From Candidatus Kerfeldbacteria bacterium (lineage in GTDB: Bacteria > Patescibacteriota > Patescibacteriia > SBBC01 > CAIJZX01), in the NCBI GenBank assembly GCA_016193315.1, contig JACPSJ010000001.1, positions 791,478 through 855,477 of the forward strand: 64,000 nt of DNA, read 5' to 3'. The notes under the pieces are model-generated. The model was not told the DNA's origin. It made no database searches and worked only from the letters and a program-made list of their open reading frames with translations. Positions 2 through 21,191 of the stretch are shown piece by piece. Both the position numbers and the translations under genes were made by a program. Positions within the stretch are counted from its first letter, which is position 1. Each line of letters starts with the position of its first letter.

Positions 2-1120
2 CACCAGCTTGACAAAACGGTGCGACTTAGCGTCGGCTTTCTCCTGCCAATGAGGCTCGAAGACGTGTACCTGGACTGGGAACGAATCGAGGGGAACGGG
101 CGCAATGAAGTCCTACTCGCGACCACACCCCGAGTCATAGTCGATGCCTACCGCCAAGCCGCGGACAAGGCTGGTGTGAATATCACCGCGGTGGAGTTTC
201 ACCCTCTCAGCTTGACCCGGGTGCTAGATGTACCAGACGTGCAAGCCCGGTTGTACATCATGCCGGACGCATCAACCACTACCTTCAGCATCATTCAGGG
301 ACGATCGCTCCGATTCTGCCGGGTGGTTCCAAACGAACGTCTAGCCGCCGGCAAGATCGGCGAGGAAATTCGCCGGTTAAGAGCCTTCTACGAATCGCAA
401 CGCGGCCCAGTGGCTGACGTCGTTGACCTAAGTCGAGCCCAAATCCTCGGACTCGTGGCCGCTCATCCACTGACCAGAGAGTCCAGTAACTCCTGGCTAG
501 TCAGCGTCGGCGCGGCGCTCCGTGGACTGATTCCCCGCCGACATGACGTCGCCATCAGTTTGATGGCGATTGGCACCGAGGAGGCGCATGCTCTCCAGAA
601 GGCCAAAGCGCTGGCTGGATTCTGGTCGAGCTTGACCGTCGGTCTGGTCTTCCTTTTCACCCTGGCGTACGTCGGCACCTGGGCGGTCACCGGCTCATTG
701 GCCCGAGCCGCTGCCAAGCAACGACCGCTGCTAACCGCCGCGGCCGGTCCGTCTGATCTCGCCAATCTTGAGCAACGGGCCAAGGATTTCAACGCCATCG
801 TCCGGGCTGCCGATCCCATCCTGCAATCAACGCCGCGGTGGGACGTGCTGCTCGACGACCTAAAGGCTCGCCTCAGCCCGGGAATCACCATTAGCGCGCT
901 AACCATCACTTCCATCCGCGACCCGATTACTCTCGCCGGCCTGGCCGTCACCCGCTCCGACCTCAACGCTTTTCGGCAGAAACTTGTGGACTCGGACTAC
1001 CTAACCGACGTCGCCTTGCCATTGACCAACCTCGAACTCACCGCCAGCATTCCGTTTCAGTTCACCTTTCGACTGACTGATTCCTTGCGCCTAACGCCGG
1101 GATCCCCCAAAAACCAATGA
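2..1120 (+). CDS. pilMN: Type IV pilus assembly protein, PilM-PilN fusion; 5' end lies outside the window
   Basis: Reading frame is open from base 2, so the gene starts upstream of the window. First ~170 aa resemble the C-terminal actin-like half of PilM (VNITAVEFHPLSL...). This is followed by one TM segment (FWSSLTVGLVFLFTLAYVGTWAV) and a PilN-like periplasmic region. A 4-nt overlap with the downstream pilO-like gene supports an operon. Confidence 0.6.
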   Translation, partial: HQLDKTVRLSVGFLLPMRLEDVYLDWERIEGNGRNEVLLATTPRVIVDAYRQAADKAGVNITAVEFHPLSLTRVLDVPDVQARLYIMPDASTTTFSIIQGRSLRFCRVVPNERLAAGKIGEEIRRLRAFYESQRGPVADVVDLSRAQILGLVAAHPLTRESSNSWLVSVGAALRGLIPRRHDVAISLMAIGTEEAHALQKAKALAGFWSSLTVGLVFLFTLAYVGTWAVTGSLARAAAKQRPLLTAAAGPSDLANLEQRAKDFNAIVRAADPILQSTPRWDVLLDDLKARLSPGITISALTITSIRDPITLAGLAVTRSDLNAFRQKLVDSDYLTDVALPLTNLELTASIPFQFTFRLTDSLRLTPGSPKNQ

Positions 1121-1677
1121 ACGGAGTTAGGATCCCGCCGGCGGTCCTTAGTTCGCTATCAAAGGCGGTGGTGGCCATGCTGATCGGTGCAGCCGTTATC
1201 TACGTAGCTAGCAACAACATCATCAAACAGGTCAGCCAGATCCAGCAACAACGAATCGCGTTGCGGGTGTTGGACAGACGGTACAACACCGCCGCCAGCT
1301 TGAGGCAGGAGTTATCCCAACTCGGCCCAAACGAAGACCGGATCAAGAAGGCCTTCCTGCCGGTTGAAAACATCCCTGATTTCATTTCGGCCCTCGAAAG
1401 CGTGGCTCGTCAAAGTTCGATCAACCAGACGGTCAAGTTTGGGACGCCAACTCCTTTCCCTCATCCTGAACTTCAACTCTCAACCATTGATTTTGATGTC
1501 GCCTTGGCGGGCACAGTGGACATGTTCCGAAACTATCTGAAAACCTACCAACAACTTCCCTATCTCACCGAAATTGTCTCCCTCACCCTAACCTCGACCA
1601 GTCGCCTCGGCTGGGATGAGTCCGCCACCATTTCTTTTCGGGCCAGGCTGTACACTGGCAGCCTGCAAGAAACATGA
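1117..1677 (+). CDS. pilO: PilO-like type IV pilus inner-membrane assembly protein
   Basis: 186 aa; N-terminal TM helix (AVVAMLIGAAVIYV) then a coiled-coil/periplasmic domain; sits immediately after pilMN with an ATGA-type overlap. Confidence 0.5.
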   Translation: MNGVRIPPAVLSSLSKAVVAMLIGAAVIYVASNNIIKQVSQIQQQRIALRVLDRRYNTAASLRQELSQLGPNEDRIKKAFLPVENIPDFISALESVARQSSINQTVKFGTPTPFPHPELQLSTIDFDVALAGTVDMFRNYLKTYQQLPYLTEIVSLTLTSTSRLGWDESATISFRARLYTGSLQET

Positions 1678-1925
1678 ACCAGCCAGATCCGATCCCTAAC
1701 CGCAGCCGTCTCCGACGGGTGATCTACCCGGTCGTCGTCATCACTTACCTAGTCGCGGCCATCATCTTGGCGCTGGTGGCGATACGCTTTCTTTCCACTA
1801 ACCTCGGTCGAGCCATTGCTATTGACCAAGACATCGGACCGTCCCAGACTACTCATCTCGACCTGGAAACCTATCGCCGCGTCGCCAGACGGCTCGGCAT
1901 CCCCCGGGAGCTACCGCCACTCTAG
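1674..1925 (+). CDS. Small single-TM membrane protein, last gene of the pilMNO unit
   Basis: 83 aa; one hydrophobic helix (VVVITYLVAAIILALVAI); start overlaps the pilO stop; no recognisable motif. Confidence 0.3.
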   Translation: MNQPDPIPNRSRLRRVIYPVVVITYLVAAIILALVAIRFLSTNLGRAIAIDQDIGPSQTTHLDLETYRRVARRLGIPRELPPL

Positions 1926-2910: not shown

Positions 2911-5900
2911 TTACGGGCTCCAATTTACGATAATATCGTCCACCCGTGGATAGTTTGAGCCCGAACTCGTACAATCATTTGAGCAGAGCTGTATTTTGTA
3001 CCGGAAGTAACGGTAATTATTGTGCTCGCTATACGATAATGTGACTGGTGTATTAGGGCTGGGGGCATTGTACCAGTCGGTTGAGACGCACGTCGGTCCA
3101 CTTGATACAGCGCAGAAGTTCCATGTACCAGCATCATCACAGGCGGGAGGATTGGTTTTCCCATTTGGACAGTTCGAAGTGGCCAGCTGGAATCGAACCG
3201 TGCCCGTTCCGGCTGCTCCCTGCCACATGACGCTGTTGTACGCCGCCCCGTCGGTCACTTGGGTATCAAAGACGGCTGATGTCAACGTCCCGTAGATCGT
3301 GCCCCCCGGACACGCATTGAAGGTCCAGCTCCCCTGATTTGTGCCAGGAACGTTCGTACCGCCGTTCACCGTGATCGGTACCGTGGCATTCATGTACGAC
3401 ACTGTGACGTCATAGAGTGTGAATGTTCCTGTTCCAGAGATCGAACGGGCCGGTTGCCCAGTGTCCGTCGTTGTCAACGTAATGTCATCGGAATCTGAGC
3501 ATCCATCGCTGTTTCCTCCGACGTCGAGCGTGAGGAGACCGCCACTGGCGACATCGAAGATGCCGCCGAGCATGATGTCGCCAATGGAGGTATTTGCCCA
3601 CTTGCCGTTCGCTCCGATCGTGACGGCGTTCGGCGAACCGTCGACCCTGATGTCTCCCGCTCCCTGCTGCAACTCACCCTGTGTGATGTTGAGGATGCCG
3701 TTCACGCGCAGTTCACTACCGATACCGACGCTCACCGCAGTCGTCGGTTGTGCTTTGCTGATAGTAACGGATGCGAAATCACTGGTGGAACACGAATCGG
3801 CATCGCCGCAGCCTGTGTTGAGCACCGTGGGGGTGGCGCCATCAAACGTAAGAGTCGCGGTACCTTCGTTGAACGTTCCGCTGTTAAACCAGTTCTCGCC
3901 AACGGTCAAGGATGCGGTGGGAGGAGCTGTCAACGTCGATCCATTTCCGATGACGACGTCACCATCGACGTCGACCGCCGTGTTGTTTGTCGCCGCTGTC
4001 ACAGTCACGGGATTCGCTCCACCGGCTGTAAGATCGGAAATTGTCCTGACCGTTCCCGTATCGAACGTGTAGGTTGGATTTCCGCTCGTCGGTCGCAACT
4101 CGAGGTTGTAATACGTTGTGGCGGTGATGTTTGTTGCCGTCGTGCCCGTGTAACGTATGGTTGAACTTGATGGGGTGAACACTTCGCCAGCACCGATGTT
4201 GAAAGGCTGGCCGCTTCCGGAGAGGGTGATGGTGTATGAAGAAGCATTGAACGTGTTCGTACCGCTTGACTGGTTAATCCAGAGCTTGCTTTGGACGGTG
4301 AAGTTTTGGGTGACATTTATGGTTGATGATTCGTCTGCTTTACCGATGTGCAGATTGCCGAACGTTGAGGCTCCTGAACCCCTGATGCTGCTTGGGGCGC
4401 CGGTGAGAGTCGTAACCCTATTCGCGTTCTGAGTTAGCGTGCCAAACGTCACGATTTCGGTGCCAGCAGTAAGATCGTAGTCGTTCAGGGCAAGCGTTCC
4501 AAGGGGGTCAGCGATTGTGACGCCGTCGAGCGCGGCCAGCACCGCCCCGCCCTGCCAGCTCTCAATTTGGCTCGTTGGCGCCGCACCGTTTCCGAACACG
4601 ACGATACCCGGTAAACCTGAAGCTATCGATGAATCAGTCGTTTGGAATTTGAGCTCGTTGTTGATATATAACTTCAGCGTGATGCCGATAACTTCAAGTT
4701 TTATTGTGTCACCAACTGTGGCGGCCGGTATTGTGTCGCCAGGTCCGGGATCGAGCGTCTGGTAAGCGCCACCTAACCATCGGTATACATCCGTCGGACC
4801 AGCGGTGGTATCTGTTGTATAGCAGTATCGATCTAAACCATCGCTGCTTACACGCACACAGACCTGCGCTTCGTTTCCTGGAGAAGCTGCCGCGATGACT
4901 GCCTCTGAATACTGATCAGCACCGACCGGGGATGCCCACGTGGCTGTATTATCTCCAGCCAGCGCGCCACCGAGATCCGAGCTGCTGTAAATCTGCGGGT
5001 CGCCCTGCACATTGTCCGTCCAGCCGGTGCCGAGTCCCGGTCCCGCCCTCTCGAAATCGTCCTGGGATGCGGTCAGGGAGTAGGTTCCGCCGCTGCCCGT
5101 CCAAAGATGGGAGTACGTAGTTGGCGCAACCGTTGCGCCCGTTGCATGGGAGTAGACGACCGTCGAGAAAACCGAATCGAAAACGCCCGGCGTGGTTAAG
5201 GAACCGTCAATAACGAACGGCGTTCCATTTCCTTCAATGGTCAGCACGTACGTATCGGCATCGAGCGTTCCGTCAACTTCGAGTGCAAAGGTGGTGACAT
5301 TGCCGTTGAGCGTGTAGGTATTTCCGGCCCTGATGTACAATTCCTCGCGCGCTGACGAGCCGTTATTATCAACAATCAGGTTGTTGCTTACATCAACGTC
5401 GTGGAACACGTCCGCATCCGGTGATACCGAGTCGTCATATGAACCGAGATTCGAACTGGAGAGCGACTGATTGTCATCACTCCCGATCGTCAGGTGTTCT
5501 TTGTACAAAGTAACGCCGGTGATATCCCCTGAACCGTCGTATTTCGTCACCGCAACCGCCCGATCGGTCGTCAAACCGGTCGAGATATCAATGAAGACGG
5601 TGACGACCGCTCCGCTTGCGGGTGCCGGAACGCTAGCGATGCTCCAGCTTCCTGCGACCGTTGGTTGGTTTTGGGATTGCAGCGTGTCATTGACAGCGAC
5701 GGCAATGGTCCCCACGTCTGCACAGGCAGTCGTTTGATCAAATGCGTTGCACGTTCCGGAGATATTCATGGTAGGTGGTGCTGCCGGCACGTACTCAACG
5801 AGCAGCCACATGGTTGTAACAGCAAGGATCGATCCACCGCGGGTCAGACGGACACCGATTTGTGTATTGTCAAGAACGCTCGGCGTCCAGGCAGAGGACG

Positions 5901-8900
5901 TGAATGGACGGTCGTACGCGGTAATGCTGTACAAACTCGGAATTGAGGTGTCGTTTGTCACCCACGCCGTTGAGGTAATGGCTTCAGTATCGCCTTCAAT
6001 GGCCGGTGCATTGGCACTGTCTTTAAGTCGGACAACGAGATCGGCTTGCGTGGAAGTCGTATTCGTGAACCGAATTCCGACCTGGGTCAGATTCACGAGT
6101 GCTCCGGCTGGTATCACCCCCGCAGTGTCTGTAACGTTTACATCGGCAGTTGCGTTGAGACTTGAGGCAGCCATGTAATGGCCACCAGTTCCGTCATTCG
6201 GAGTAATCTCGCTGGTACAGTCCCAGTTTGCCGTACATCCACCCTGATTGGTCCACTGTGAAAAATCTCCTGGTGGTGCATTGGGTCGTAGGTGGACAAC
6301 GCTGCCCGGCCCGGGGTAGCCGTTCTGCGTGGCACCGATCCCCTTGTTCACCGCGACGTCGTCGATGTACCAGTCACCGCCCTGCCCTCCATTAAACCCC
6401 GTGTTGCCGCCAACAGCAAGGTTCATTACACCATTGGCAATGTTCCGCGTTGAGCTCGTTGCAAAAACGGTGCCGTCGATCCGCGCTTCGACAATGTCGG
6501 TTGATCCCGATCCACGGGTGTCTAACTTCATCTCGATAAAGTACCACCTGTTGGTTGAGAGCACGCCCGAGGTGCCAATTGTTCCAACCTGGTCCCAGAG
6601 ATCGAGCAATCCAGTGGGTCTGATGGTAATTCCGGCTTGCCACGTTCCGCTGGAATCCTGAAAGTGCATGATCATACTGTCCTGCAAGCCGGTTGGAGGT
6701 GAGACAACGTAGAGGTACATCCGGGCGTAAAACGGTCCGTCATTATTCGCCGCCTCAAAATCATGTCCGATTCCCTTACGATCGAGTAAGGTTAATCCGT
6801 TGATCCGCATCGACGCGGCACCGGAGTGTTTCGTTGTGGTGTTGATGAGCGAGATGCCGTAGACTGTCTGGAACTCCACGCCGCTGGTCTCCGACTGCAG
6901 CTCGAACCCGGACGTCCACAGCCGTCCGCCCTCGGCCGGCACGTACTCTACCACGAGCCAGAGCGTGGTGACGAAGGTGTCCTCTGATGATGTAATGTCT
7001 CGAAGGCCGATCCGAGCGCTGTCGATGTCAGTCTTGGTTATCGGGTCTCCGTCCGCGGAGCCTGACTGATTAAAGAGGGTCAGCCGATAATTCTTCGGGT
7101 TGCTGACTGCGTTCGTCGTCCAGCCGGGAACGCTTTCGCCTGGACTGATGTATTCTTCTAAAGCATTCGTCCCTGGGATATTGATCCGAAGACCATACTG
7201 GGTGAGCGGGGTATCACCGTGAGAGTAACGAACGCCAACCTGCGCGAGCTTCACCTGATCGCCGTCGACGATACTCCACGTCGATGCATTTTGGACATCC
7301 ACCGTAATAATATCGCCTGTCGTGCACTCAGCAGAGTCAAGCTCATCATCGATCGGCGTCACCTCGTTGATAATGTCCCAGGCTGTGCTGCCGCCAGTGC
7401 AGGTATTCGAGACGTTGCCGTTCGGGAGCAGGTGGACGACCTTCCCCTCGCCCGGCCAATTCTGGTCATTGCCGCCGCTGTCGTCATTGATCGCGATGTC
7501 GTCAAAGTACATATCGCCCGTAACGCCGGTCGTGTAGTAGCCGAAGTAGAGATCGAGTGCTCCGCTGGTAAAATCTTGGTCAAGCCGAGACGCGAAAGAT
7601 GCGCCGTCAAGCCTGGCTTCAAGTTCGTCGTTGAGACCGGCGCCGTCAGTCGAGTCGAATCTCATCTCAAGCCGATACCACGTGTTGAGCAAGAGCGGCG
7701 ACGAAGATCCGATCAGAATGCCATCTTCTTCATTCCGAAGATCAAGGGTCAGGTTAGTGTTCAGTCGAATACTCGCCTTAGTGCTTGGCGCTGAATTGAC
7801 AAATGCCACAATGAGGGTTTGGGCTGAAGGAGCAGTGGTAATCCGAATGAATGTCCGGACGTAGATGTCGTCGGGGAGATTCGCCGCCGCGTAGCGATAG
7901 CGAATGTTTTCAACGGCAGCCGAGCTGGTTACTTGGGTTCGCAACGACGCCGCGCCTGATCTGACATAGCTGGGGCTGGTGTTGATCGCCGGTAATCCGT
8001 TGGTCGCGGTAATCTCCATGCCCGCAGACAGGCTCTGCAGCTCAAACCCGATGGTTGTCAGCCGACTTCCCGAGGCCGACCCGCCGACCGAGTCCAAGGC
8101 AACCTGCCACGGCCGTGACTCGCTGAACTCTCCCAGCGCGAGCGGACCGAGGAGGTACAGGGCCGGGGCAATGTCCGGAAAATCAATGGTGTACTCGAAC
8201 TCGTGCGTTTCGCCCGTTCTCCAGTCGACGTTCCAGGCAATTTCCTGCTCAAGATCGCTCACTGGTTGCACGGCACCTTCGTCAGACACCGATTTCAGTA
8301 TGAAGTCGGACGGAACACGTTCTCGAACGGTTCCGCGATAATTGCTGTTGGCTGTGATCGTCAGCTTCACGTTGTAATCAACCACCGGGAAGACGCGGGT
8401 GGGGAAGGTGGTGCGCTCGATATCGAAGGGAACCGTGTCGCGCACCTCAAAGAAGTCGTCAATTGACCGCGTTCCGTTGATGTTTGTGGCCGTGACCCGG
8501 AGCCGGTAAATTCCGCTTTGTCCGGCGCGGTACGAGGCGGCGTAGTCGGGGTTGATGGTGACGCCCTTGTCAACGCACTCGGGGTCCGGCCGAATGGTTC
8601 CATCCGATGTGGAGAAACGTTGGTTCCGACCTGCGGGGTCTGTGACGACCAGTTCGACGCCCGCGCTACACTGGGTGTGTCCGGTATCATCCAGTACGGT
8701 CATGCCGATCTCGGTGGTGGTGTCCGGCCGGATGATGGAGCGGCGGACGTTGACGCCGATCACCCCCCAGAAGAATGTTCTGTTCACAACCATGGTCTTG
8801 CCGTTCGGTGCGCGAAACTGAACGCGGGCGGTGTAGCGGCCGGGACGCAGGCCGGCGGTGGAAAACCGGAGAACGGTATCTGCATCGCGACCGCGTCGAC

Positions 8901-9219
8901 GAACTTCTTCTGTGAACGCCTGCTGCAAGATACTGTCATCTGGACTGACGAGCGTCACGTCATCGATCTTCCAGGGTCCGGTCGACGCTCTCAGCAACCG
9001 CGGCTGTAGTGCGTTCGATGAAATGGCGATCGTCGGTTGCTCGGTCACTCGGAATGCGCGATCTTCTGATCGGGCTGACGATCTGATTTGTTGCGTACTC
9101 GATGTCTGTCGGAAAACGACAACCGTCACTATGGCTGCCAGTGCTAGGAGCGTCGCTCCGACTGCGCCGGGGCTGATGATGGAAACATGTGACGATTGCT
9201 TTGTCCTTGATCGTCTCAT
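2911..9219 (-). CDS. Giant (~2,100 aa) membrane-anchored surface protein with two LamG/concanavalin-A-like lectin repeat modules and a Thr/Gly/Asn-rich C-terminal beta-rich region; putative pilus-associated adhesin
   Basis: Single long ORF (track 2911..9330). The likely start MRRSRTK at 9219 overlaps the stop of the upstream minor pilin. N-terminal TM anchor (AVGATLLALAAIVTVVVF). Two ~395-aa internal repeats (about 6933..8118 and 5778..6933), each with a LamG_3-like core (NTWYRLEMRFDSTDG..YFDDIAIND and NRWYFIEMKLDTRGSG..YIDDVAVNK) and ending in WLVVEYVP / WLLVEYVP. It is embedded between pilin genes. Confidence 0.75.
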   Translation of the reverse strand: MRRSRTKQSSHVSIISPGAVGATLLALAAIVTVVVFRQTSSTQQIRSSARSEDRAFRVTEQPTIAISSNALQPRLLRASTGPWKIDDVTLVSPDDSILQQAFTEEVRRRGRDADTVLRFSTAGLRPGRYTARVQFRAPNGKTMVVNRTFFWGVIGVNVRRSIIRPDTTTEIGMTVLDDTGHTQCSAGVELVVTDPAGRNQRFSTSDGTIRPDPECVDKGVTINPDYAASYRAGQSGIYRLRVTATNINGTRSIDDFFEVRDTVPFDIERTTFPTRVFPVVDYNVKLTITANSNYRGTVRERVPSDFILKSVSDEGAVQPVSDLEQEIAWNVDWRTGETHEFEYTIDFPDIAPALYLLGPLALGEFSESRPWQVALDSVGGSASGSRLTTIGFELQSLSAGMEITATNGLPAINTSPSYVRSGAASLRTQVTSSAAVENIRYRYAAANLPDDIYVRTFIRITTAPSAQTLIVAFVNSAPSTKASIRLNTNLTLDLRNEEDGILIGSSSPLLLNTWYRLEMRFDSTDGAGLNDELEARLDGASFASRLDQDFTSGALDLYFGYYTTGVTGDMYFDDIAINDDSGGNDQNWPGEGKVVHLLPNGNVSNTCTGGSTAWDIINEVTPIDDELDSAECTTGDIITVDVQNASTWSIVDGDQVKLAQVGVRYSHGDTPLTQYGLRINIPGTNALEEYISPGESVPGWTTNAVSNPKNYRLTLFNQSGSADGDPITKTDIDSARIGLRDITSSEDTFVTTLWLVVEYVPAEGGRLWTSGFELQSETSGVEFQTVYGISLINTTTKHSGAASMRINGLTLLDRKGIGHDFEAANNDGPFYARMYLYVVSPPTGLQDSMIMHFQDSSGTWQAGITIRPTGLLDLWDQVGTIGTSGVLSTNRWYFIEMKLDTRGSGSTDIVEARIDGTVFATSSTRNIANGVMNLAVGGNTGFNGGQGGDWYIDDVAVNKGIGATQNGYPGPGSVVHLRPNAPPGDFSQWTNQGGCTANWDCTSEITPNDGTGGHYMAASSLNATADVNVTDTAGVIPAGALVNLTQVGIRFTNTTSTQADLVVRLKDSANAPAIEGDTEAITSTAWVTNDTSIPSLYSITAYDRPFTSSAWTPSVLDNTQIGVRLTRGGSILAVTTMWLLVEYVPAAPPTMNISGTCNAFDQTTACADVGTIAVAVNDTLQSQNQPTVAGSWSIASVPAPASGAVVTVFIDISTGLTTDRAVAVTKYDGSGDITGVTLYKEHLTIGSDDNQSLSSSNLGSYDDSVSPDADVFHDVDVSNNLIVDNNGSSAREELYIRAGNTYTLNGNVTTFALEVDGTLDADTYVLTIEGNGTPFVIDGSLTTPGVFDSVFSTVVYSHATGATVAPTTYSHLWTGSGGTYSLTASQDDFERAGPGLGTGWTDNVQGDPQIYSSSDLGGALAGDNTATWASPVGADQYSEAVIAAASPGNEAQVCVRVSSDGLDRYCYTTDTTAGPTDVYRWLGGAYQTLDPGPGDTIPAATVGDTIKLEVIGITLKLYINNELKFQTTDSSIASGLPGIVVFGNGAAPTSQIESWQGGAVLAALDGVTIADPLGTLALNDYDLTAGTEIVTFGTLTQNANRVTTLTGAPSSIRGSGASTFGNLHIGKADESSTINVTQNFTVQSKLWINQSSGTNTFNASSYTITLSGSGQPFNIGAGEVFTPSSSTIRYTGTTATNITATTYYNLELRPTSGNPTYTFDTGTVRTISDLTAGGANPVTVTAATNNTAVDVDGDVVIGNGSTLTAPPTASLTVGENWFNSGTFNEGTATLTFDGATPTVLNTGCGDADSCSTSDFASVTISKAQPTTAVSVGIGSELRVNGILNITQGELQQGAGDIRVDGSPNAVTIGANGKWANTSIGDIMLGGIFDVASGGLLTLDVGGNSDGCSDSDDITLTTTDTGQPARSISGTGTFTLYDVTVSYMNATVPITVNGGTNVPGTNQGSWTFNACPGGTIYGTLTSAVFDTQVTDGAAYNSVMWQGAAGTGTVRFQLATSNCPNGKTNPPACDDAGTWNFCAVSSGPTCVSTDWYNAPSPNTPVTLSYSEHNNYRYFRYKIQLCSNDCTSSGSNYPRVDDIIVNWSP

Positions 9220-9926
9220 GGTGTGATCGTGATGCTCCCGGGAGTGGTAGTGTAGTCGATGTTTGTCCGCGTGTCGAAGCTGCCGCTGTTGATGTCGCGC
9301 AGGTTTGCACCATCCTCCTGCGTCGTCCATGTAGATTCGACACCCGCTCTATTGGGCCAACGCGTAACGTAGTCACTCGCGCTCAGCGCTGCCGCCCCAG
9401 GCCAGCTCACCGCGACAGAAATCTTTTGCGTTGACGGATCGTGTCGATTCGACGGCGGCGTGCACGTGACTCCCGTGCCATTGGAGTTGGTGACACCAAC
9501 AATTGCCCCGCTACCGTCTCGACACACGTTCTGCACCCGAAAAGAACGCGTGTAATCGACGCCGTTGATGGAAAGTATTTCAGACCCTTCATTCGACGGA
9601 TGAGAGATTACCCACGCTCCCGAGGGGTAGGTCGGTGGCAGTTGACCAGTATTCTTTATGGGATGATATGGAACATCCTTCTGACGATCAAAGATGTTTA
9701 TCCAGTTTTCGGTTGCGGCCGCATGCACCGCTTCAAAGGTTTCTTGCATCAGACCGTTGGCGACGTTTCTCTCGGTCGCAATCTTGTTCCCCCGCAGGCT
9801 GACGACTACAATCTGACCGCCCGCGCCAAGAATCACCATGGCCACGGCGATGGTAATGAGTATTTCTAGCAGGAGCTGACCGTTCCGGTGTCGATGGTCA
9901 TGCCTGATGGAGGTGCGTATGGCCAC
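9216..9926 (-). CDS. Minor pilin/pseudopilin (PilW/PilV-like)
   Basis: Prepilin-type N-terminus NG|QLLLEILITIAVAMVILG with Glu+5; 236 aa; stop overlaps the start of the giant gene. Confidence 0.55.
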   Translation of the reverse strand: MAIRTSIRHDHRHRNGQLLLEILITIAVAMVILGAGGQIVVVSLRGNKIATERNVANGLMQETFEAVHAAATENWINIFDRQKDVPYHPIKNTGQLPPTYPSGAWVISHPSNEGSEILSINGVDYTRSFRVQNVCRDGSGAIVGVTNSNGTGVTCTPPSNRHDPSTQKISVAVSWPGAAALSASDYVTRWPNRAGVESTWTTQEDGANLRDINSGSFDTRTNIDYTTTPGSITITP

Positions 9927-9938
9927 AGAACCTAGACG

Positions 9939-10466
9939 CTAGTATATATTTCCGTTCGTCGTCACGGTAATATCCTGAGCTCGTCCTTCAGATTGGATGG
10001 TAATAAGCCTGTTCGGATTGGTGGTCCCGTGAAGACGGTCAAAAATTACGTCCATGGTTGGGGCGGCGAATGTCATACTGCCCGGCAGGTAGATGGTTTC
10101 CTTGACTGTGCGGCCGATATAGTCCGTGGTTGAAAAGTTTTCATAGTAGTCGGAACCGGCCGCGTTGACAAAACGAATGCCCCAGTGGCTCGCATCTTCA
10201 CTGGCAATCGCTTTGGCCTGCGCCTGACGGAGATCGAAGATGATTGATTTTCTTGCTTCTTCCAGCTCCGAAGTTTTCGCATAGTTCCGGTAGTAAGCCA
10301 CACCGCCGACACCGATGACGGCGAGAACCGCAATGGTCAGCAGGGCTTCAACCAGGGAAAACCCGTGGCGTTGCCCCCCCTTGGCTAGCAGGGGGAAAGC
10401 CGGCGCAACACAGTCTGCGTCTGCTGCCTGCGACAGACCGACACGATCCGCCGGGATGAGACTCAT
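9939..10466 (-). CDS. Pseudopilin, FimU/GspH-like
   Basis: Prepilin N-terminus HG|FSLVEALLTIAVLAVIG. The leader is unusually long if the start is at 10466, so the true start may be internal. First gene of the minor-pilin operon downstream of pilC. Confidence 0.6.
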   Translation of the reverse strand: MSLIPADRVGLSQAADADCVAPAFPLLAKGGQRHGFSLVEALLTIAVLAVIGVGGVAYYRNYAKTSELEEARKSIIFDLRQAQAKAIASEDASHWGIRFVNAAGSDYYENFSTTDYIGRTVKETIYLPGSMTFAAPTMDVIFDRLHGTTNPNRLITIQSEGRAQDITVTTNGNIY

Positions 10467-10483: not shown

Positions 10484-11689
10484 TCAGGTGAAGCTGCCGA
10501 TGAATTGGTAGATCGGCAAGAGAATCGACAACGCCACGATTCCCACCACCGCCCCCATGAACAGCAGCAAGGCCGGCTCCAGAAAGGTGGTCAAGTCCTT
10601 GATGGTCGTGTCGATCTCGGCATCATAGAATTCGGAAAAGGATCGGAGAACTTCCTCGGTGGTGCCCGACTTCTCGCCGGCCGCCACCAGGCTGGAAAAG
10701 AAGCGCGGGAACAGCTTCGGGTGCTCTTTGAGCGTTTGGGAGAGCGGCACGCCGTTGGCCACCCGTTCCGCCGCTTGGTCCAAGACCCGTTGATAAGTCT
10801 CGTTGCCCACGGCTTGACCGGCGAGCTGCACCGCCTCGGTGATTGACACCCCACTCCTGAGCATGCTGCCGAGGGAACGAGAGAATCTCACCAGGGCTAG
10901 TTTCTTCATAAGTTCGCGGGCCACTGGCAAGATCGAGATCAAGCGGATCAGAAACCTGCGCCCGGGACGGCGAAACTGGATGACCAACCACACTATGACC
11001 GCCAGCCCAAGCACATCCAGCAGCGGGTATTTGGTCACGGCCGTGCTGATAACCAACAACACCTTGGTCATGGCTGGCAACTCAACATTGGCCTGATAGA
11101 AAGCCTTGGTGATTCGCGGCAGGACAAAGGTCAGCAGCAACACCACCACCCCCAGCGTGCCCGCCAGCAGCAGCACCGGATACGAGAGCGCGGACTTGAT
11201 CCGATGGTTGATGAGGTGGATCTTCTCCGAGTACTGCGCTAGCTCGTCGAGCGTTTGCGCCAGCTGCCCCGACGCTTCCGCCGCTCTGAGCATCCCCACG
11301 TAGATTGGCGGGAAATAACGATGGTATCTCTGGAACGTGGTCGACAGCGGCAGGCCATTCTGAACGTTGGTCTTGGCATCCAGCAGTATGGCTCGCGCTG
11401 TCTGCTTGGTCGCGTCGGCGACCAAGATATCCAGCGATTCGGTCAGATTGACCCCGGCCTGGACAGTGGCGCCGAGGTTCCGCATCATCACGATGCGATC
11501 AATCGCGGTGAAACGCTCAAACGGGCGGACCCAAAAAGCAGGCCGCGACCCGCCAACTTCCTCGATAACCATCGGCGTCAAGTGGTGGCTCAACAGATAG
11601 CCAATCGCCTCCTGGCGATTAGCCGCGGCCAGTACTCCTTTGATCGCCTGGCCAGCCTGGTTGACTGCTTCGTAGGAGTAGGTGGCCAT
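10484..11689 (-). CDS. pilC: Type IV pilus platform protein PilC (GspF family)
   Basis: 401 aa with two T2SS-F repeats and three TM regions; positioned directly downstream of pilB. Confidence 0.85.
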   Translation of the reverse strand: MATYSYEAVNQAGQAIKGVLAAANRQEAIGYLLSHHLTPMVIEEVGGSRPAFWVRPFERFTAIDRIVMMRNLGATVQAGVNLTESLDILVADATKQTARAILLDAKTNVQNGLPLSTTFQRYHRYFPPIYVGMLRAAEASGQLAQTLDELAQYSEKIHLINHRIKSALSYPVLLLAGTLGVVVLLLTFVLPRITKAFYQANVELPAMTKVLLVISTAVTKYPLLDVLGLAVIVWLVIQFRRPGRRFLIRLISILPVARELMKKLALVRFSRSLGSMLRSGVSITEAVQLAGQAVGNETYQRVLDQAAERVANGVPLSQTLKEHPKLFPRFFSSLVAAGEKSGTTEEVLRSFSEFYDAEIDTTIKDLTTFLEPALLLFMGAVVGIVALSILLPIYQFIGSFT

Positions 11690-11691
11690 GG

Positions 11692-13404
11692 CTATTCTCG
11701 AACCACCCGGACTACCTCATCAAGTGTGGTCACGCCGCGCTCGATCTTCCGCAGCCCATCCTCGAACATAGTAACCATGCCATCCTGCATCGCCCGCTGT
11801 CTAATCTCGCTCGCCGGCGCTCGGCGGATGATCAGTTGGCGAATCGCTTCGGACACTGGCAGGACTTCGAAAATCCCGATCTGTCCTTGATAGCCGGAAT
11901 GACCGCAGACTGAACAACCAGTGCCGGCGAACAACTGGCTGGGTGGTCGAATTGCCACCGGACGACCAAACATTGACAGCTGGGCCGCCAACAAACGTTC
12001 AACTTCCGGCGTTCGTGGCAAGGTGGTGATGCACGAGCGGCAGATCTTCCGCACCAGACGTTGGGCGATGACGAGATTGACCGTTGACGAAACCAGAAAG
12101 GGCTGGGCGCTCATGTCGAGGAGCCGCGGGAATGTTGAGGGCGCATCATTGGTGTGAAGCGTAGTCAAAACCAGGTGCCCGGTCAGGGCGGCGTGAACTG
12201 AGATACCCACGGTCTCGTTATCGCGAATCTCCCCGACCATGAGGATGTCGGGGTTCTGGCGCAGGAGCGACCGCAGGCCGGTGGCAAAAGTAATGCCAGC
12301 TTTGGGGTTGACCTGGGTCTGGTTGACCCGCGCGATCTCGTACTCGATCGGATCTTCAATCGTTGTAATGTTGACCGTCGGGGTATTGAGAATATGCAGG
12401 ATGGCATAGAGCGTAGTTGTTTTCCCGGCGCCGGTCGGTCCAGTGGCCAGGATCATGCCGTGGGGCTTTTGGATTTCTTGCCGGATAGCGGCGGCTTGAT
12501 CGGGCGAGAGTCCCAGGTCCTCCAAGGTGAATGGCCGGTTCGCTGGTTTCAACAGTCGCATCTCGATTTTCTCGCCATGCAAGACCGGTAACACGCTGAC
12601 GCGAATGTCGATTTGCCCACTCCCCAAGTCAACACGAAAGCGGCCGTCTTGGGGTGTCCGGTGTTCATCGATCTGGAGGTTGGCCAAGACCTTCACCCGG
12701 GCGACCAGCGTCGGGGCGATGATTTTGTTCAGGCTAAGAATTTCATGGAGCACGCCGTCAATGCGGTAGCGCACCAGCACCTCCTGGTTCAGCGGTTCAA
12801 AGTGGATATCAGAAGCGTTGAGCACGACTGCGTTTTCGATGATGCTGTCGACGATACTGACAATCGGTACGGCCGCCGCCAGCTTTGATAGGTTGGCTTC
12901 GCCTGAGCTGGGGAGGAAGGTCTTGACTTGTTGTTGGATGACGTCATGAAACTGCTGCCCCATCGACCGCTGGTACTGGGCCAAGCCAAACCGAAGACTG
13001 CTCGGCTTGACGAGATACGGTTCCACCCAAGCATTCAGCTTGACCCGCAAGAACTCGATGGTTTCATAATCAAGCGGATCGACCATCGCCACCTTGACTA
13101 CGTGCCGTGACTGATCGGAGGAGAATGCCACCACCCCGCGGGCTTTGGCCAAAGCCTCAGGAACCAGTTCGAGCGTGGCCGCGGGGATAGTAATCGTCTT
13201 AAGATCAACAACTGGCACACCAAAATACGGCTCCAAAAGCTCAACTAGATACTCCTCAGTTATCGCCCCGCGCCCGATCAAGACCTCAGTGATCGGTTGG
13301 CCCAGCCGCTCAGACTCGGCTGCAGCCTGCTGAAACGTCTGGCGGTCAACCACCCCAGGGGCGGCGGTCAAGATGTTTTCCAGTGCCGGTCTTGAGATGT
13401 GCAC
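11692..13404 (-). CDS. pilB: Type IV pilus assembly ATPase PilB (GspE family)
   Basis: Walker A LATGPTGAGKTTTL, His box, and a C-terminal tetracysteine motif (CRSC...CSVCGHSGYQG); N-terminal GSPII_E-like domain. Confidence 0.9.
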   Translation of the reverse strand: MHISRPALENILTAAPGVVDRQTFQQAAAESERLGQPITEVLIGRGAITEEYLVELLEPYFGVPVVDLKTITIPAATLELVPEALAKARGVVAFSSDQSRHVVKVAMVDPLDYETIEFLRVKLNAWVEPYLVKPSSLRFGLAQYQRSMGQQFHDVIQQQVKTFLPSSGEANLSKLAAAVPIVSIVDSIIENAVVLNASDIHFEPLNQEVLVRYRIDGVLHEILSLNKIIAPTLVARVKVLANLQIDEHRTPQDGRFRVDLGSGQIDIRVSVLPVLHGEKIEMRLLKPANRPFTLEDLGLSPDQAAAIRQEIQKPHGMILATGPTGAGKTTTLYAILHILNTPTVNITTIEDPIEYEIARVNQTQVNPKAGITFATGLRSLLRQNPDILMVGEIRDNETVGISVHAALTGHLVLTTLHTNDAPSTFPRLLDMSAQPFLVSSTVNLVIAQRLVRKICRSCITTLPRTPEVERLLAAQLSMFGRPVAIRPPSQLFAGTGCSVCGHSGYQGQIGIFEVLPVSEAIRQLIIRRAPASEIRQRAMQDGMVTMFEDGLRKIERGVTTLDEVVRVVRE

Positions 13405-14276: not shown

Positions 14277-15104
14277 CTAGTAATTGGTGTCGTTGCCCAT
14301 CAGGCGGACACTGGTCCCAACCTCATACAGCGTGCCCTGATCACCGCCGTCCTTAGCTGCTTTGTCATCCGCGCCATTCGGCCCAAACTCGGCACTCTCC
14401 AACCGCGCATTGAGCTCAAAGACGTTCTGTGGTTCGAGTGGGGGGGTGTCTGTAACTTTCTGACAGGCGTAACGATAGACATAGTCCGTATTCGCCGGTG
14501 CGGTCACGTTGGCCACTGTATTGGTCGGATCAACAGGTAGACTCGAGAGCGGTGAACCGCCAGTGATAGTGGTCAAGTCAACCGGAATCCAGCCGCTCCC
14601 ATCAACCTTGGCGTTGTTAGCCAACGCCACGGCGGTGCATGAATCTCCGGCCGCACCCGTCCCGCCAAAGGAGGATCCGCCCTCCACATCATCCCCTTCA
14701 GGGACGTTTGCTGTGCAGTCGGGCTCGGTCCCGGTGTGCGGCAGACTGTAGTAGATTACGGCACTGGTAACATCCCCCGGTAAAGTACTATCGTAACCGA
14801 GACAATTGGCTGTCGGTCCGAGCGACGGGTCGGTGACAGTGGTAGCGTAGATCGCCAGCACTGTCTTCAGCGTGGTCAAATCAGAAATTCGCTGCGAATC
14901 TCTCGATTTCTTCAGGGTTTCGGAAGGGTTCAGCACCAGGATCAGAACCACGGCTAGGACCGCCATTACCGCCACCACCAGCAGCAATTCAAGCAAGGTG
15001 AAACCGCCGCGATTGCGGCTGGTCGGGCTAACTTCGACCGTCGGTGGGGTAAGCGACGATCTCCTAAATGTTGATATCCGCCCCAGCAATTGTCTCAAAA
15101 CCAT
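14277..15104 (-). CDS. Type IV major pilin candidate (PilA-like), large (275 aa)
   Basis: Canonical N-terminus RNRGG|FTLLELLLVVAVMAVLAVV with Glu+5. It has its own sigma70-like promoter and a downstream hairpin, i.e. a monocistronic layout typical of major pilins. Long leader (~34 aa). Confidence 0.7.
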   Translation of the reverse strand: MVLRQLLGRISTFRRSSLTPPTVEVSPTSRNRGGFTLLELLLVVAVMAVLAVVLILVLNPSETLKKSRDSQRISDLTTLKTVLAIYATTVTDPSLGPTANCLGYDSTLPGDVTSAVIYYSLPHTGTEPDCTANVPEGDDVEGGSSFGGTGAAGDSCTAVALANNAKVDGSGWIPVDLTTITGGSPLSSLPVDPTNTVANVTAPANTDYVYRYACQKVTDTPPLEPQNVFELNARLESAEFGPNGADDKAAKDGGDQGTLYEVGTSVRLMGNDTNY

Positions 15105-15211: not shown

Positions 15212-15592
15212 CTAGGACTCAGATTGGGAGTAACTGCTGACCAGCCCGACCACATCGTGGAGTCTGACATTCGCCTTGATGATATAATCAGTCGCACCCA
15301 GCGCCATACCGCGATCGATTTCCTGCGATTGGCCAAGATTACTCATGATCACCACCGGGGTTTCCCGCCACCGCTCATTCGCCCGAATAGCGGCCAGCAC
15401 GTCAAAACCGCTGACTCCAGGCAACATCAAGTCAAGGAGCACCGCCTGCGGTGGGTCACCTGATAGCAAGTCCATCGCCTGACTACCATTCTCAGCGACC
15501 GCCACGTCATAGCCCTCTGCTCCAAACTTAAGCCGCAGGGCCTTGGCTAGAAACTGGTCGTCTTCGACCACCAGGACTTTCTTTCGAACCAT
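15212..15592 (-). CDS. Stand-alone response-regulator receiver domain (CheY-like; PilG/PilH-like by context)
   Basis: 126 aa. The acidic pocket DD, the phospho-acceptor Asp in LLDLMLPG, the Ser/Thr in MSNLG and the Lys in YIIKA are all present. No output domain. Confidence 0.8.
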   Translation of the reverse strand: MVRKKVLVVEDDQFLAKALRLKFGAEGYDVAVAENGSQAMDLLSGDPPQAVLLDLMLPGVSGFDVLAAIRANERWRETPVVIMSNLGQSQEIDRGMALGATDYIIKANVRLHDVVGLVSSYSQSES

Positions 15593-18923: not shown

Positions 18924-18952
18924 ACGCTAGCACAAACTTACGTTTTTGTCAA
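18924..18952 (-). promoter_or_regulatory. Candidate promoter TTGACA-N17-TAGCGT for the unknown module/receiver operon
   Basis: Perfect -35 TTGACA overlapping the last codons of the comEC MBL ORF, with a 17-nt spacer and a weak -10 TAGCGT; about 150 nt upstream of the 18769 start. Confidence 0.25.
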
Positions 18953-19792
18953 GCGCCAATTTCCGCGTCCGTCAGTTTCAAATTCCAACGTCCCTTCCAA
19001 ATCCGTCCGGTGGACCTCAACCCGGAAGTATTCCAGCCGTCTTAGGGTCGTCGGATGCGGATGGTGATAGCGGTTTCTTGACCCAACCGAAATCACTGCT
19101 ATCCTCGGCTGCACTGCCCGCAACCAACTGTGGCTGGTCGAAAACCGCGATCCGTGATGACCGACTTTCAACAGCGACGCTCGCACGTTAACCCCGCTGG
19201 CGGTAATCCGTTCCTCGACCTCACTCGACGCGTCGCCGACCATCACCGTAGTACTGCCAGCACAGGTCAAACTAATACCAACTGACCACTCATTGGTCGC
19301 GGTGGTACGTGAATTCCGTACGGCGTCCAGAAACGGCCACAGTATTTCCAGTTTTAGGTACGAACCGAGCTGGAATTGTTCGCCTTGCTGTACAACGCGC
19401 TCGTCTACGCTTCGTTCCGCGAGCACTTTCCGCCAGGCGTGCCAGGTGGCAGTGTCGGTGCTGACGCCGGACGTCAAGAGGGTCATAATCTCAAACCGTT
19501 TTGCCACCGACACCAGGCCGGTCAGGTGATCGCTGTCAGGATGGGTCAGCACTATCAGTTCCAGGTTTCGGTTCCCCGAACCGAGGTAGTGGGGCAAGAG
19601 TTCGACAATCTTTGACGATGGTCCGCCATCAACGAGCATGTCTTGATGATCAGGTGTCTGAATGAGGATGGCGTCACCCTGGCCGACATCAAGAATGGTT
19701 AATCGACAAGCCGGACTGACATCAGTCGGCCAAAACTGAACCGCCAGCCACAGCCCGAAAACCAGACTAAGCCAGAGGACTTTCAGTCGCAT
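18938..19792 (-). CDS. comEC: ComEC/Rec2 C-terminal metallo-beta-lactamase domain protein, with its own N-terminal TM helix
   Basis: ILDVGQGDAILIQTP, HPDSDH and GHHGS motifs of the ComEC MBL domain; N-terminal hydrophobic helix VLWLSLVFGLWLAV. Confidence 0.75.
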   Translation of the reverse strand: MRLKVLWLSLVFGLWLAVQFWPTDVSPACRLTILDVGQGDAILIQTPDHQDMLVDGGPSSKIVELLPHYLGSGNRNLELIVLTHPDSDHLTGLVSVAKRFEIMTLLTSGVSTDTATWHAWRKVLAERSVDERVVQQGEQFQLGSYLKLEILWPFLDAVRNSRTTATNEWSVGISLTCAGSTTVMVGDASSEVEERITASGVNVRASLLKVGHHGSRFSTSHSWLRAVQPRIAVISVGSRNRYHHPHPTTLRRLEYFRVEVHRTDLEGTLEFETDGRGNWRLTKT

Positions 19793-21191
19793 GGTTTCGA
19801 GTCATCAGATGAAACGCAAACCAAACCGCTAGCGCCGCAGTCAAGGCGACCAGCCAACCGGACAACTGAACAGCGGCGTTCGGCAGTGTTGCACCCCAGT
19901 GAATGATGGATAAAATTCCGCGGACCACCGTATCCGTGGCCGGCCCCAGTAGACCAACAAACAGCGCGCCGAACCCCAACCCCATACCGAGTGGGATGAG
20001 CGGCAACACGCTGGTGTTGACCAGCGGCGCCACGAGTGACAGGCGGCCGAAGTGCCACAGCAGCAACGGCTCGGTCATCAGCATCGCCGCCAGTGTCGTG
20101 GCCAGGTTGTCGCGCAGACCAAAAGCTTCGGGCACCCACGGCAACCGTTCAGCTAAGGGTTTAGCCACGCCCACCAGCCCGATGGTCGCCAAGAATGAGA
20201 GTTGAAAGCCGAGATCATGAAGCAGGATGAGCGGATTGTTCCAGGTCATCACCAGCAGTGTGTAGCCGAGCAGCCTAGCCATGGCGATCGGCCGGCCGAG
20301 CCGGCTGGCCAACACTACCATCATGACCATCAGGCCAGCGCGGGTGACCGAAGCCGAAGCGCCGGTCATGATAACAAATCCGATGACCAAAAACACGGTT
20401 GGCAACCAGGCCCAGCGGCGGCCGATTATTCGAATCAGTACGGTTGAAGCGGCGGTCACGATGATGGTCACGTTGAAACCGGATAGCGCCACCAGGTGAG
20501 TCGTGCCGGTCAGTCGAAACTCTTGCCGCAGTGCGTAGGGCATGTCGGCTTGGGCGCCGAGAAGCAAACCGACCAGAAACGAAGCGGCGGGTTCGTTGAA
20601 ACTAGTCTCGATTCGCCGTCGGGCCCACTCCCTGACGTACGCCAAGACCAGCCGTGGACTGAGCCGAGCTCGTTCTTGATGTACGATCCTGGCTCCCAGA
20701 CACTCAGTCGTCAAACCGTGAACCATCTGGGACCACCGTCGATCGGATCTGATCGGAACTGGTTGACAACGCATCGTCACCCGATCGCCAACGGAAACCA
20801 TGGTCCCGGGCAGCAGGTCAACCGCTGTTTTGCCTGACCGACGCTCTCCGTCCATCCGTAGATCGCTCAGTTCAACCGTCATCTCGCGAGATTCGGTGGA
20901 CGGGCGTTCGAGTATGAGACCAGAAATAGCTACCGGCTGGTTGATTCTGGAGACCAGATTGTGTGGGCTTGGTGCTACCCAGCCAGCCCAGCGTCCCAAA
21001 CCAAAACTCATCCCAATTACCACGCAACTGACCAGACGCAGCCGAGACCACGGCCAGAATCCAAAACCGGTAACCAGCAGCCCGCCAGCCGGCCACCAAG
21101 TCAGGCCGGTTAACTCAGCCAGCATCAACCCGCCCAAGAAACCCGCCAGTGTCGATAACAAATAGGACCGAGGCATAGACGCTTCGGCCAC
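19767..21191 (-). CDS. comEC: ComEC/Rec2 membrane channel portion (competence domain)
   Basis: Polytopic membrane protein with the Competence-domain signature TGTTHLVALSGFNVTI. It ends 26 nt inside the start of the MBL ORF, in a different frame. Confidence 0.75.
   Translation of the reverse strand: MAEASMPRSYLLSTLAGFLGGLMLAELTGLTWWPAGGLLVTGFGFWPWSRLRLVSCVVIGMSFGLGRWAGWVAPSPHNLVSRINQPVAISGLILERPSTESREMTVELSDLRMDGERRSGKTAVDLLPGTMVSVGDRVTMRCQPVPIRSDRRWSQMVHGLTTECLGARIVHQERARLSPRLVLAYVREWARRRIETSFNEPAASFLVGLLLGAQADMPYALRQEFRLTGTTHLVALSGFNVTIIVTAASTVLIRIIGRRWAWLPTVFLVIGFVIMTGASASVTRAGLMVMMVVLASRLGRPIAMARLLGYTLLVMTWNNPLILLHDLGFQLSFLATIGLVGVAKPLAERLPWVPEAFGLRDNLATTLAAMLMTEPLLLWHFGRLSLVAPLVNTSVLPLIPLGMGLGFGALFVGLLGPATDTVVRGILSIIHWGATLPNAAVQLSGWLVALTAALAVWFAFHLMTRNHATESPLA

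Follow-up and report, generated by a model that had tools for sequence, protein, structure and literature searches.

PilY1 carries a signal peptide of type I, an N-terminus of low conservation and a C-terminal domain that is conserved and binds the minor pilins (PMC7541494). The modular pilins of Streptococcus sanguinis include PilB, which has a vWA domain, and PilC, which has a ConA-like lectin, and a scheme of carrier plus effector covers both these pilins and PilY1 (PMC8179133). Within the candidate phyla radiation (CPR), type IV pili have been directly seen in Saccharibacteria (PMC11623550), where they are experimentally implicated in host recognition (PMC11623550, PMC11665869). The pilus loci of Saccharibacteria TM7x encode lectin-like proteins that lack a PilD signal and are proposed to be tip adhesins (PMC11623550). 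Host-cell recognition across the CPR, or Patescibacteria, is largely unknown. Here we consider a stretch of 64,000 nt (the window) from an 857-kb contig of a metagenome-assembled genome of an uncultivated Candidatus Kerfeldbacteria bacterium (MAG; contig JACPSJ010000001.1). It contains a single open reading frame (ORF) of 2,102 residues at 2911-9219 (NCBI HYY50_04270), which we call the giant and which sits in a type IV pilus operon. This gene and all features below are on the minus strand unless stated otherwise. The original prediction was that the giant would be a lectin-like, pilus-associated adhesin for a host or substrate, of a type not described in well-studied systems. The claim of novelty is overstated given the TM7x lectin-like tip proteins (PMC11623550) and the ConA-type modular pilins (PMC8179133). 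A lectin-bearing pilus accessory protein is an already known kind.

The giant is a chimera. About 1,900 residues of it are generic CPR surface-adhesin modules, and they are joined to one element that is specific to pilus operons, a C-terminal domain (CTD) made up of its last 135 residues (residues 1968-2102; 2914-3318). It is because of the CTD, rather than the N-terminal ~1,900 residues, that the giant can be linked to the pilus. We argue that the giant is best read, by analogy, as an accessory protein, itself not a pilin, of a type IV pilus of the Parcubacteria type, one that follows the logic of PilY1 without homology to it.

Of the four minor pilins, the second and third flank the slot of the giant, the order being GspH-like (mpH), mpV, giant, GspJ/PilW-like (mpW) and PilX/GspK-like (mpX). 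The start ATG of the giant (9219) shares ATGA with the stop of the upstream gene, and its stop (2911-2913) ends 5 nt ahead of the downstream ATG (2905). It had been predicted that one long ORF overlaps or abuts both neighbours, and this is correct; the giant is translationally coupled to both of them, inside the minor-pilin operon. The upstream neighbour, mpV (9216-9926, 236 residues), has the class III prepilin signal NG↓QLLLE, read from the sequence, and its homologs are fused to the CTD elsewhere. The downstream neighbour, mpW (2387-2905), has the signal PG↓FSLLE, a Pfam N_methyl match (E 1.2e-4) and N-terminal GspJ/ComGF-like matches in NCBIfam. The labels first given to this pair, PilW-like upstream and PilE-like downstream, do not agree with these profiles. 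The embedding in a type IV pilus operon does hold, with class III signals in the neighbours and PilB and PilC nearby.

The CTD belongs to a family of ~130 residues that is not covered by any Pfam or NCBIfam model. When the last 173 residues of the giant were used as query in an exhaustive HMMER search, the family was found in 530 protein clusters at E<=1e-3 and in 289 at E<=1e-10. Among the top 150 clusters the match ends no more than 2 residues from the C-terminus, except in P0293 and P0363, and the proteins range from 98 to 2,102 residues. The family motif, G-x-L-T-S-x-V-F-D ... Y-N-S-x-x-W-x-G ... R-Y-F-R-Y-K ... V-N-W-S-P, stands at the extreme C-terminus, and the giant has it. The structure model of the CTD is a small, Cys-rich jelly roll (pLDDT 90.7) with a fold resembling discoidin and CBM32 binding modules. 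A BFVD structure search with the CTD returned just weak, generic jelly-roll matches.

The distribution of the family was also examined at the level of loci. Metagenomes were scanned with an alignment of 8 CTD sequences, an earlier one of 40 being too diverse, which gave 145 confirmed matches; 80 loci were retrieved. The CTD terminates at the stop codon in 79 of 79 metagenomic loci. A homolog of mpW lies downstream on the same strand in 60 of the 64 loci that have at least 700 bp of downstream sequence (in 56 within 1 kb), and it is usually followed by mpX and PilM/O. Among 149 cluster representatives with a CTD, 84 have a Sec or transmembrane-type N-terminus, 36 are at least 700 residues long, and 28, about 19%, are pilins with a class III signal fused to the CTD. 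The pilin part is mostly a full-length mpV homolog, as in P0326 (335 residues). P0231, from Terrybacteria, carries the annotation of a type II secretion system protein, and at locus L020 a fusion of this kind occupies the giant's slot. Unlike the giant, these fusions carry the class III signal. The recurrent fusion predicts, in the Rosetta-stone sense, that the CTD and mpV interact where they are separate. The pilus link thus extends beyond one genome, both through the mpW homolog next door and through the mpV fusions.

The sequence ahead of the CTD is hypervariable and differs completely between loci. No non-CTD region of the giant is found by tblastn in the 80 CTD loci; a profile search finds its ConA-like module, or the second half of that module, as cargo in a few other CTD proteins. 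Median identity across loci is 46% for the CTD, 42% for PilC and 34-43% for the minor pilins, the CTD values being biased upward since the loci were chosen by CTD similarity. Judged by these sequences, the CTD appears at least as conserved as PilC and the minor pilins. In the long CTD loci PilB-PilC-mpH-mpV lie upstream, from 0.1 to 9.6 kb away from the CTD. The interval between mpV and the CTD typically holds a ~315-residue protein, a giant of 800-2,300 residues, a ~230-residue protein and then a CTD protein of 285-450 residues. The giants in this interval are common and have an N-terminal hydrophobic segment and fn3-like domains. It must be noted that typical CTD proteins of 285-450 residues (L011 17103-18374; most of L014-L093) have one or two repeats of ~130 residues before the CTD. 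No Pfam model matches this repeat, which starts just past a signal-peptide site, A-x-A↓DQ(M/I)K(T/S)TE, and the slot giants that precede CTD proteins end in a unit similar to it (...TY.YTP).

One locus can be compared with the window gene for gene. In the PilC homolog search the nearest relative is only 55% identical, and among the PilC relatives it is locus L011 that matches throughout, with identities of 42% for the major pilin, 41% for mpH, 35% for mpV, 42% for mpW and 48% for mpX. Its slot holds an unrelated protein of 1,366 residues and a secreted protein of 423 residues. Over its last 157 residues the secreted protein has 45% identity to the last 164 of the giant, and like the giant it abuts mpW. 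In the part of L012 and L013 that was seen, no large gene follows the first minor pilins. A scan of genome contigs with PilC gave only distant loci, from Sutterella, Lachnospira and Singulisphaera.

The organisation matching that of PilY1, together with the CTD-mpV fusions, leads us to favour for the giant the role of a pilus-tip-associated adhesin: its CTD would dock on the complex of minor pilins, and its ConA-like modules would bind glycans on the host surface. We consider the chances of this specific claim about even. After Sec export the CTD would join the tip or priming complex of the minor pilins (mpV, mpW, mpX), and the remainder of the protein would then be displayed at or near the pilus tip. 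The cargo here is made up of an MG2-like anchor module, two ConA-like modules whose family also occurs in phage virion proteins, and a region rich in beta structure. The ConA-like modules would bind, or possibly cleave, surface glycans of a host bacterium, giving the episymbiont a host-specific attachment.

Several points weigh against this. The pilus association rests wholly on gene context and fusions, and the CTD identities carry the bias given above. From pilin-CTD fusions without cargo it is clear that the CTD does something in its own right; in them it looks like an effector module and not a carrier, and docking is one reading among others. No PilT was found among the window ORFs tested. 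An N-terminal anchor, if uncleaved, would keep the giant tethered to the membrane. Homologs of the adhesin part, including ones with ConA repeats, lie away from pili. The last two points concern the N-terminal side of the protein and deserve a closer look.

A Kyte-Doolittle scan gives a sole hydrophobic segment at residues 12-38 (9106-9186), which is either a signal anchor or a long signal peptide; it lies where an N-terminal transmembrane anchor had been predicted. The N-terminus reads SPG↓AVGAT, without Glu5. It has no G-F-x-x-x-E prepilin motif and no N_methyl match in Pfam or NCBIfam, and so the giant does not have the class III signal and alpha-1 helix of a pilin. Next comes an N-terminal module (residues 43-385; 8065-9093), probably of Ig-like or MG2-like beta sandwiches, with weak Y_Y_Y and MG2 profile matches. 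It is common to giant CPR surface proteins outside pilus loci. The giant has 19 relatives of 1,200-3,400 residues, and what they share with it is mainly this module, at 30-42% identity to P0003-P0020. The repeats are present in 3 of the 19, several share the beta-rich region up to about residue 1938, and none of these whole-protein relatives has the last ~160 residues. Six of their loci were examined (P0002, P0003, P0004, P0010, P0012, P0015), and none is near pilin, PilB or PilC genes. It had been said that homologs consistently located away from pilin genes would speak against a pilus role. This is the case for all 6 N-terminal homologs and is the reverse of what the CTD homologs do, which lie beside mpW in 60 of 64 loci. 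Four of the six examined relatives head another cassette, in which the giant gene is followed by 4-5 secreted or membrane proteins of ~320-370 residues. We note that this non-pilus cassette (L002 4983-9553; L003 16512-21487; L094 13936-18906; L095 14462-18877), headed by giants with the N-terminal module, contains pairs with a PGGHYGA motif and a C-terminal transmembrane segment as well as Thr/Ala-rich proteins ending in Y. By eye it is like the WxL/DUF916-type surface loci of Firmicutes.

One can imagine a scenario where the giant is a membrane-anchored surface adhesin that is co-regulated with the pilus and not carried on it. The N-terminal segment would stay in the membrane and ~2,000 residues of beta domains would reach out through the wall, with the CTD as a terminal carbohydrate-binding module. 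The single long hydrophobic segment fits this scenario, as do the presence of the N-terminal module in giant surface proteins of non-pilus cassettes and the likeness of the CTD fold to discoidin and CBM32 modules. It leaves unexplained why the CTD is always last and directly ahead of the PilW-like gene in 60 of 64 loci, why it was repeatedly fused to a minor pilin, and why it is conserved while the cargo is not. This is the main rival, and we regard it as possible but doubtful.

The two repeats occupy residues 386-765 (6925-8064, 380 residues) and 766-1146 (5782-6924, 381 residues). Along their full length they share 33% identity (E 7e-53), and each closes with WL(V/L)VEYVP. Tandem repeats with this ending were correctly predicted, at a length of ~395 residues that is too long. 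Each consists of a ConA-like jelly roll followed by a second beta sandwich; in the AF2 model of the second repeat the jelly roll spans about residues 766-970. It has the curved two-sheet beta jelly roll of the ConA-like lectin-glucanase superfamily. Further fold matches are to sialidase lectin domains, PL7/PL14 lyases, CBM2 of the phage J-1 Dit, mycobacteriophage baseplate and receptor-binding proteins, botulinum toxin Hc and L-type lectins. No Pfam model scores above the gathering threshold, Laminin_G_3 (PF13385) included: repeat 1 has no match, and repeat 2 has a Cip1-like one alone (E 0.021). Homologs give LamG_3 or Cip1-like matches that are likewise below threshold. The lectin core that had been read from the sequence is thus borne out as a predicted ConA-like fold and not as a Pfam LamG domain, and carbohydrate binding is putative. 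A third ConA-like domain at residues 1380-1590 finds no support when aligned with the repeat profile by hhalign. The 956 residues after the repeats had been put at ~900 and are rich in Thr, Gly and Ser. Ahead of the CTD they form a region (residues 1147-1967; 3319-5781) that has no Pfam match and is shared in parts with other CPR giant proteins.

The relatives of the repeats are worth considering as well. A profile made from seven repeat copies recovered 79 relatives, mostly stand-alone proteins of 390-440 or 600-680 residues. Among them are Streptomyces proteins that bear the name 'minor tail protein' and a protein of a Saccharimonadia MAG. Both repeats match the phage protein family phrog_14065 (E 7.9e-101, in two stretches, profile positions 3-419 of 1,152). 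By tblastn they are 33-35% identical to the N-terminal ~390 residues of gp13 in the Streptomyces phages Hiyaa, Keanu, Galactica and Spocter, each 380-residue repeat matching this part of the 'minor tail protein' at full length. In the phages the module is N-terminal in a virion protein, whereas in the giant it is duplicated within a cellular surface protein. Most homologs are stand-alone proteins of ~400 residues from CPR genomes, and stand-alone homologs also occur in ordinary CPR chromosomal surroundings. The gene of Hiyaa gp13 (L005 8995-12327) has the capsid genes on one side and the head-to-tail adaptor on the other, outside the tail module, and its product may be a head fibre or decoration protein. 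A module relative (30% identity over 72% of the query) also lies at 431396-432154 of LR756511.1, a 595-kb record of an 'uncultured phage'.

The same fold family admits a scenario where the ConA-like modules are enzymes, a polysaccharide lyase or glycanase, and the giant is a pilus-delivered or surface-bound degrader of host cell-wall polysaccharide. The identity to Cip1, the PL20 glucuronan lyase and other ConA-like lectin/glucanase folds is 13-19%, and Pfam thresholds are not reached. We think an enzymatic role unlikely.

The operon as a whole bears on another scenario. It runs response regulator, 275-residue pilin, small membrane protein, PilB, PilC, GspH-like pilin, mpV, giant, mpW, mpX. 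The 275-residue pilin (14277-15104, GG↓FTLLE) is the probable major pilin. PilB, the extension ATPase (11692-13404), has T2SSE and MshEN domains, and the platform protein PilC (10484-11689) has T2SSF. The GspH/FimU-like mpH (9939-10466) has the signal HG↓FSLVE, and mpX (1922-2371), the last minor pilin, lacks Glu5 and has a weak PilX_N match. A PilM/PilN-like gene, a PilO-like gene and a gene of 83 residues (20-1925, plus strand) are divergent from the operon.

A strictly C-terminal conserved domain on varied cargo, such as is found here, is typical of sorting domains. The machine could then be a type II secretion pseudopilus with the CTD as the C-terminal recognition signal for export or release of varied cargo, and PilB, PilC and pseudopilin-like genes are indeed common to type II secretion systems. 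However, homologs of the 275-residue pilin, with 29-46% identity to it, were found in 8 related loci, and a CTD fused to a pilin is hard to square with a secretion signal. PilM/N/O are present, and CPR type IV pili have been directly seen in Saccharibacteria (PMC11623550). We find the secretion scenario quite improbable.

Other genes of the window should be mentioned. ComEC seems to be split in two overlapping ORFs (18938-21191) a few kb upstream of the pilus operon, with the Competence domain at 19767-21191 and the metallo-beta-lactamase domain at 18938-19792. Its closeness is a hint that the pilus may serve in DNA uptake. Ahead of related pilus operons lie a PAS histidine kinase and three single-domain response regulators (L011 3579-6524; L012 2997-6912). 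The window retains one response regulator (15212-15592), plus proteins of 624 and 442 residues without a Pfam match. A second giant ORF, of 2,055 residues (50153-56320), has no relation to the first. Its N-terminal domain is T4SS_pilin (TrbC/VirB2-like), Big_5 Ig-like domains and numerous Cys-rich segments are also present, and a stretch at its C-terminus looks, by eye, like the globular domain of a pilin.

The gene itself appears sound. Its reading frame spans at most 2911-9330, with the start taken as the ATG at 9219, and by our own estimate a random run of 2,102 stop-free codons has a chance of ~1e-44. The scenario that the giant is an assembly chimera or a decaying pseudogene joining several genes takes its appeal from a mosaic whose parts have different relatives, and it is very improbable because the same 2,102-residue product is found in the NCBI MAG (100% identity and coverage to HYY50_04270) and in an independent Logan assembly, the frame is unbroken with even composition along the whole gene, and other large CTD fusions exist (e.g. 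L077, 2,004 residues). Misassembly, which the original prediction had named as a danger, is rejected on the independent assembly and the uniform composition.

The reading of the giant as a pilus-tip adhesin has a wider form. The CTD may be a carrier domain of CPR type IV pili that has so far gone unrecognised. Next to the pilin module and the PilY1 propeller it would be a third solution, by which adhesin cargo of any kind is plugged onto the tip complex of the minor pilins, modules exchanged with phage receptor-binding proteins included. We offer this tentatively, as a possible generalisation and not a probable one. If it is true, which hosts an episymbiotic CPR bacterium can use would be set by cargo swapping at this slot, much as phages change their range by swapping tail fibres. 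If the CTD is a docking module, it is also a possible tag for displaying proteins on pili. At the very least, the CTD is a searchable marker that points, in at least 530 protein clusters, to candidate proteins for host binding by Parcubacteria-type pili, and hypervariable cargo on such a marker makes the host-specificity protein a testable question. The giant is a good candidate for the swappable host-binding head of a pilus, and the CTD marks the slot in many related operons.

Literature searches gave no description of the CTD family, of its strict operon position or of its free and pilin-fused forms, nor of the hypervariable, often giant cargo or the kinship of a cargo module with phage virion proteins. 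The parts of the arrangement can nevertheless be placed beside known systems. The original prediction put the giant in the position of PilY1, and as an analogy of organisation this stands. Like PilY1/PilC, the type IVa pilus tip adhesins of Pseudomonas, Neisseria and Myxococcus, the giant is a non-pilin gene inside an operon of core minor pilins, with a conserved C-terminus and a variable N-terminal adhesive region. Homology to PilY1 is rejected: there is no beta-propeller and no Pfam match (Neisseria_PilC, IPR008707), and the ~130-residue CTD is a jelly roll. Pfam and NCBIfam searches of the whole giant and seven segments of it returned no LamG, PilY1 or pilin match. The giant gene further differs in lying between the second and third minor pilins, in an organism that is a monoderm-like CPR bacterium. 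Its N-terminus may be an anchor and not a type I signal peptide, and the CTD also occurs fused to pilins.

The PilX1 and PilX2 proteins of Nanosynbacter lyticus TM7x are alike in being large lectin-like proteins (beta jelly roll or beta propeller) of a CPR pilus locus that have no PilD signal and are proposed to be tip adhesins for host glycans (PMC11623550). As described, they are pilin-like lollipops with one extra domain and far smaller, whereas the giant has no pilin module. The modular pilins have effector modules, ConA-like lectins included, grafted on a carrier for display on the pilus (PMC8179133), and the pilin-CTD fusions fit this plan. The giant departs from it in having neither a class III signal nor a pilin module, and its possible carrier is the CTD at its C-terminus.

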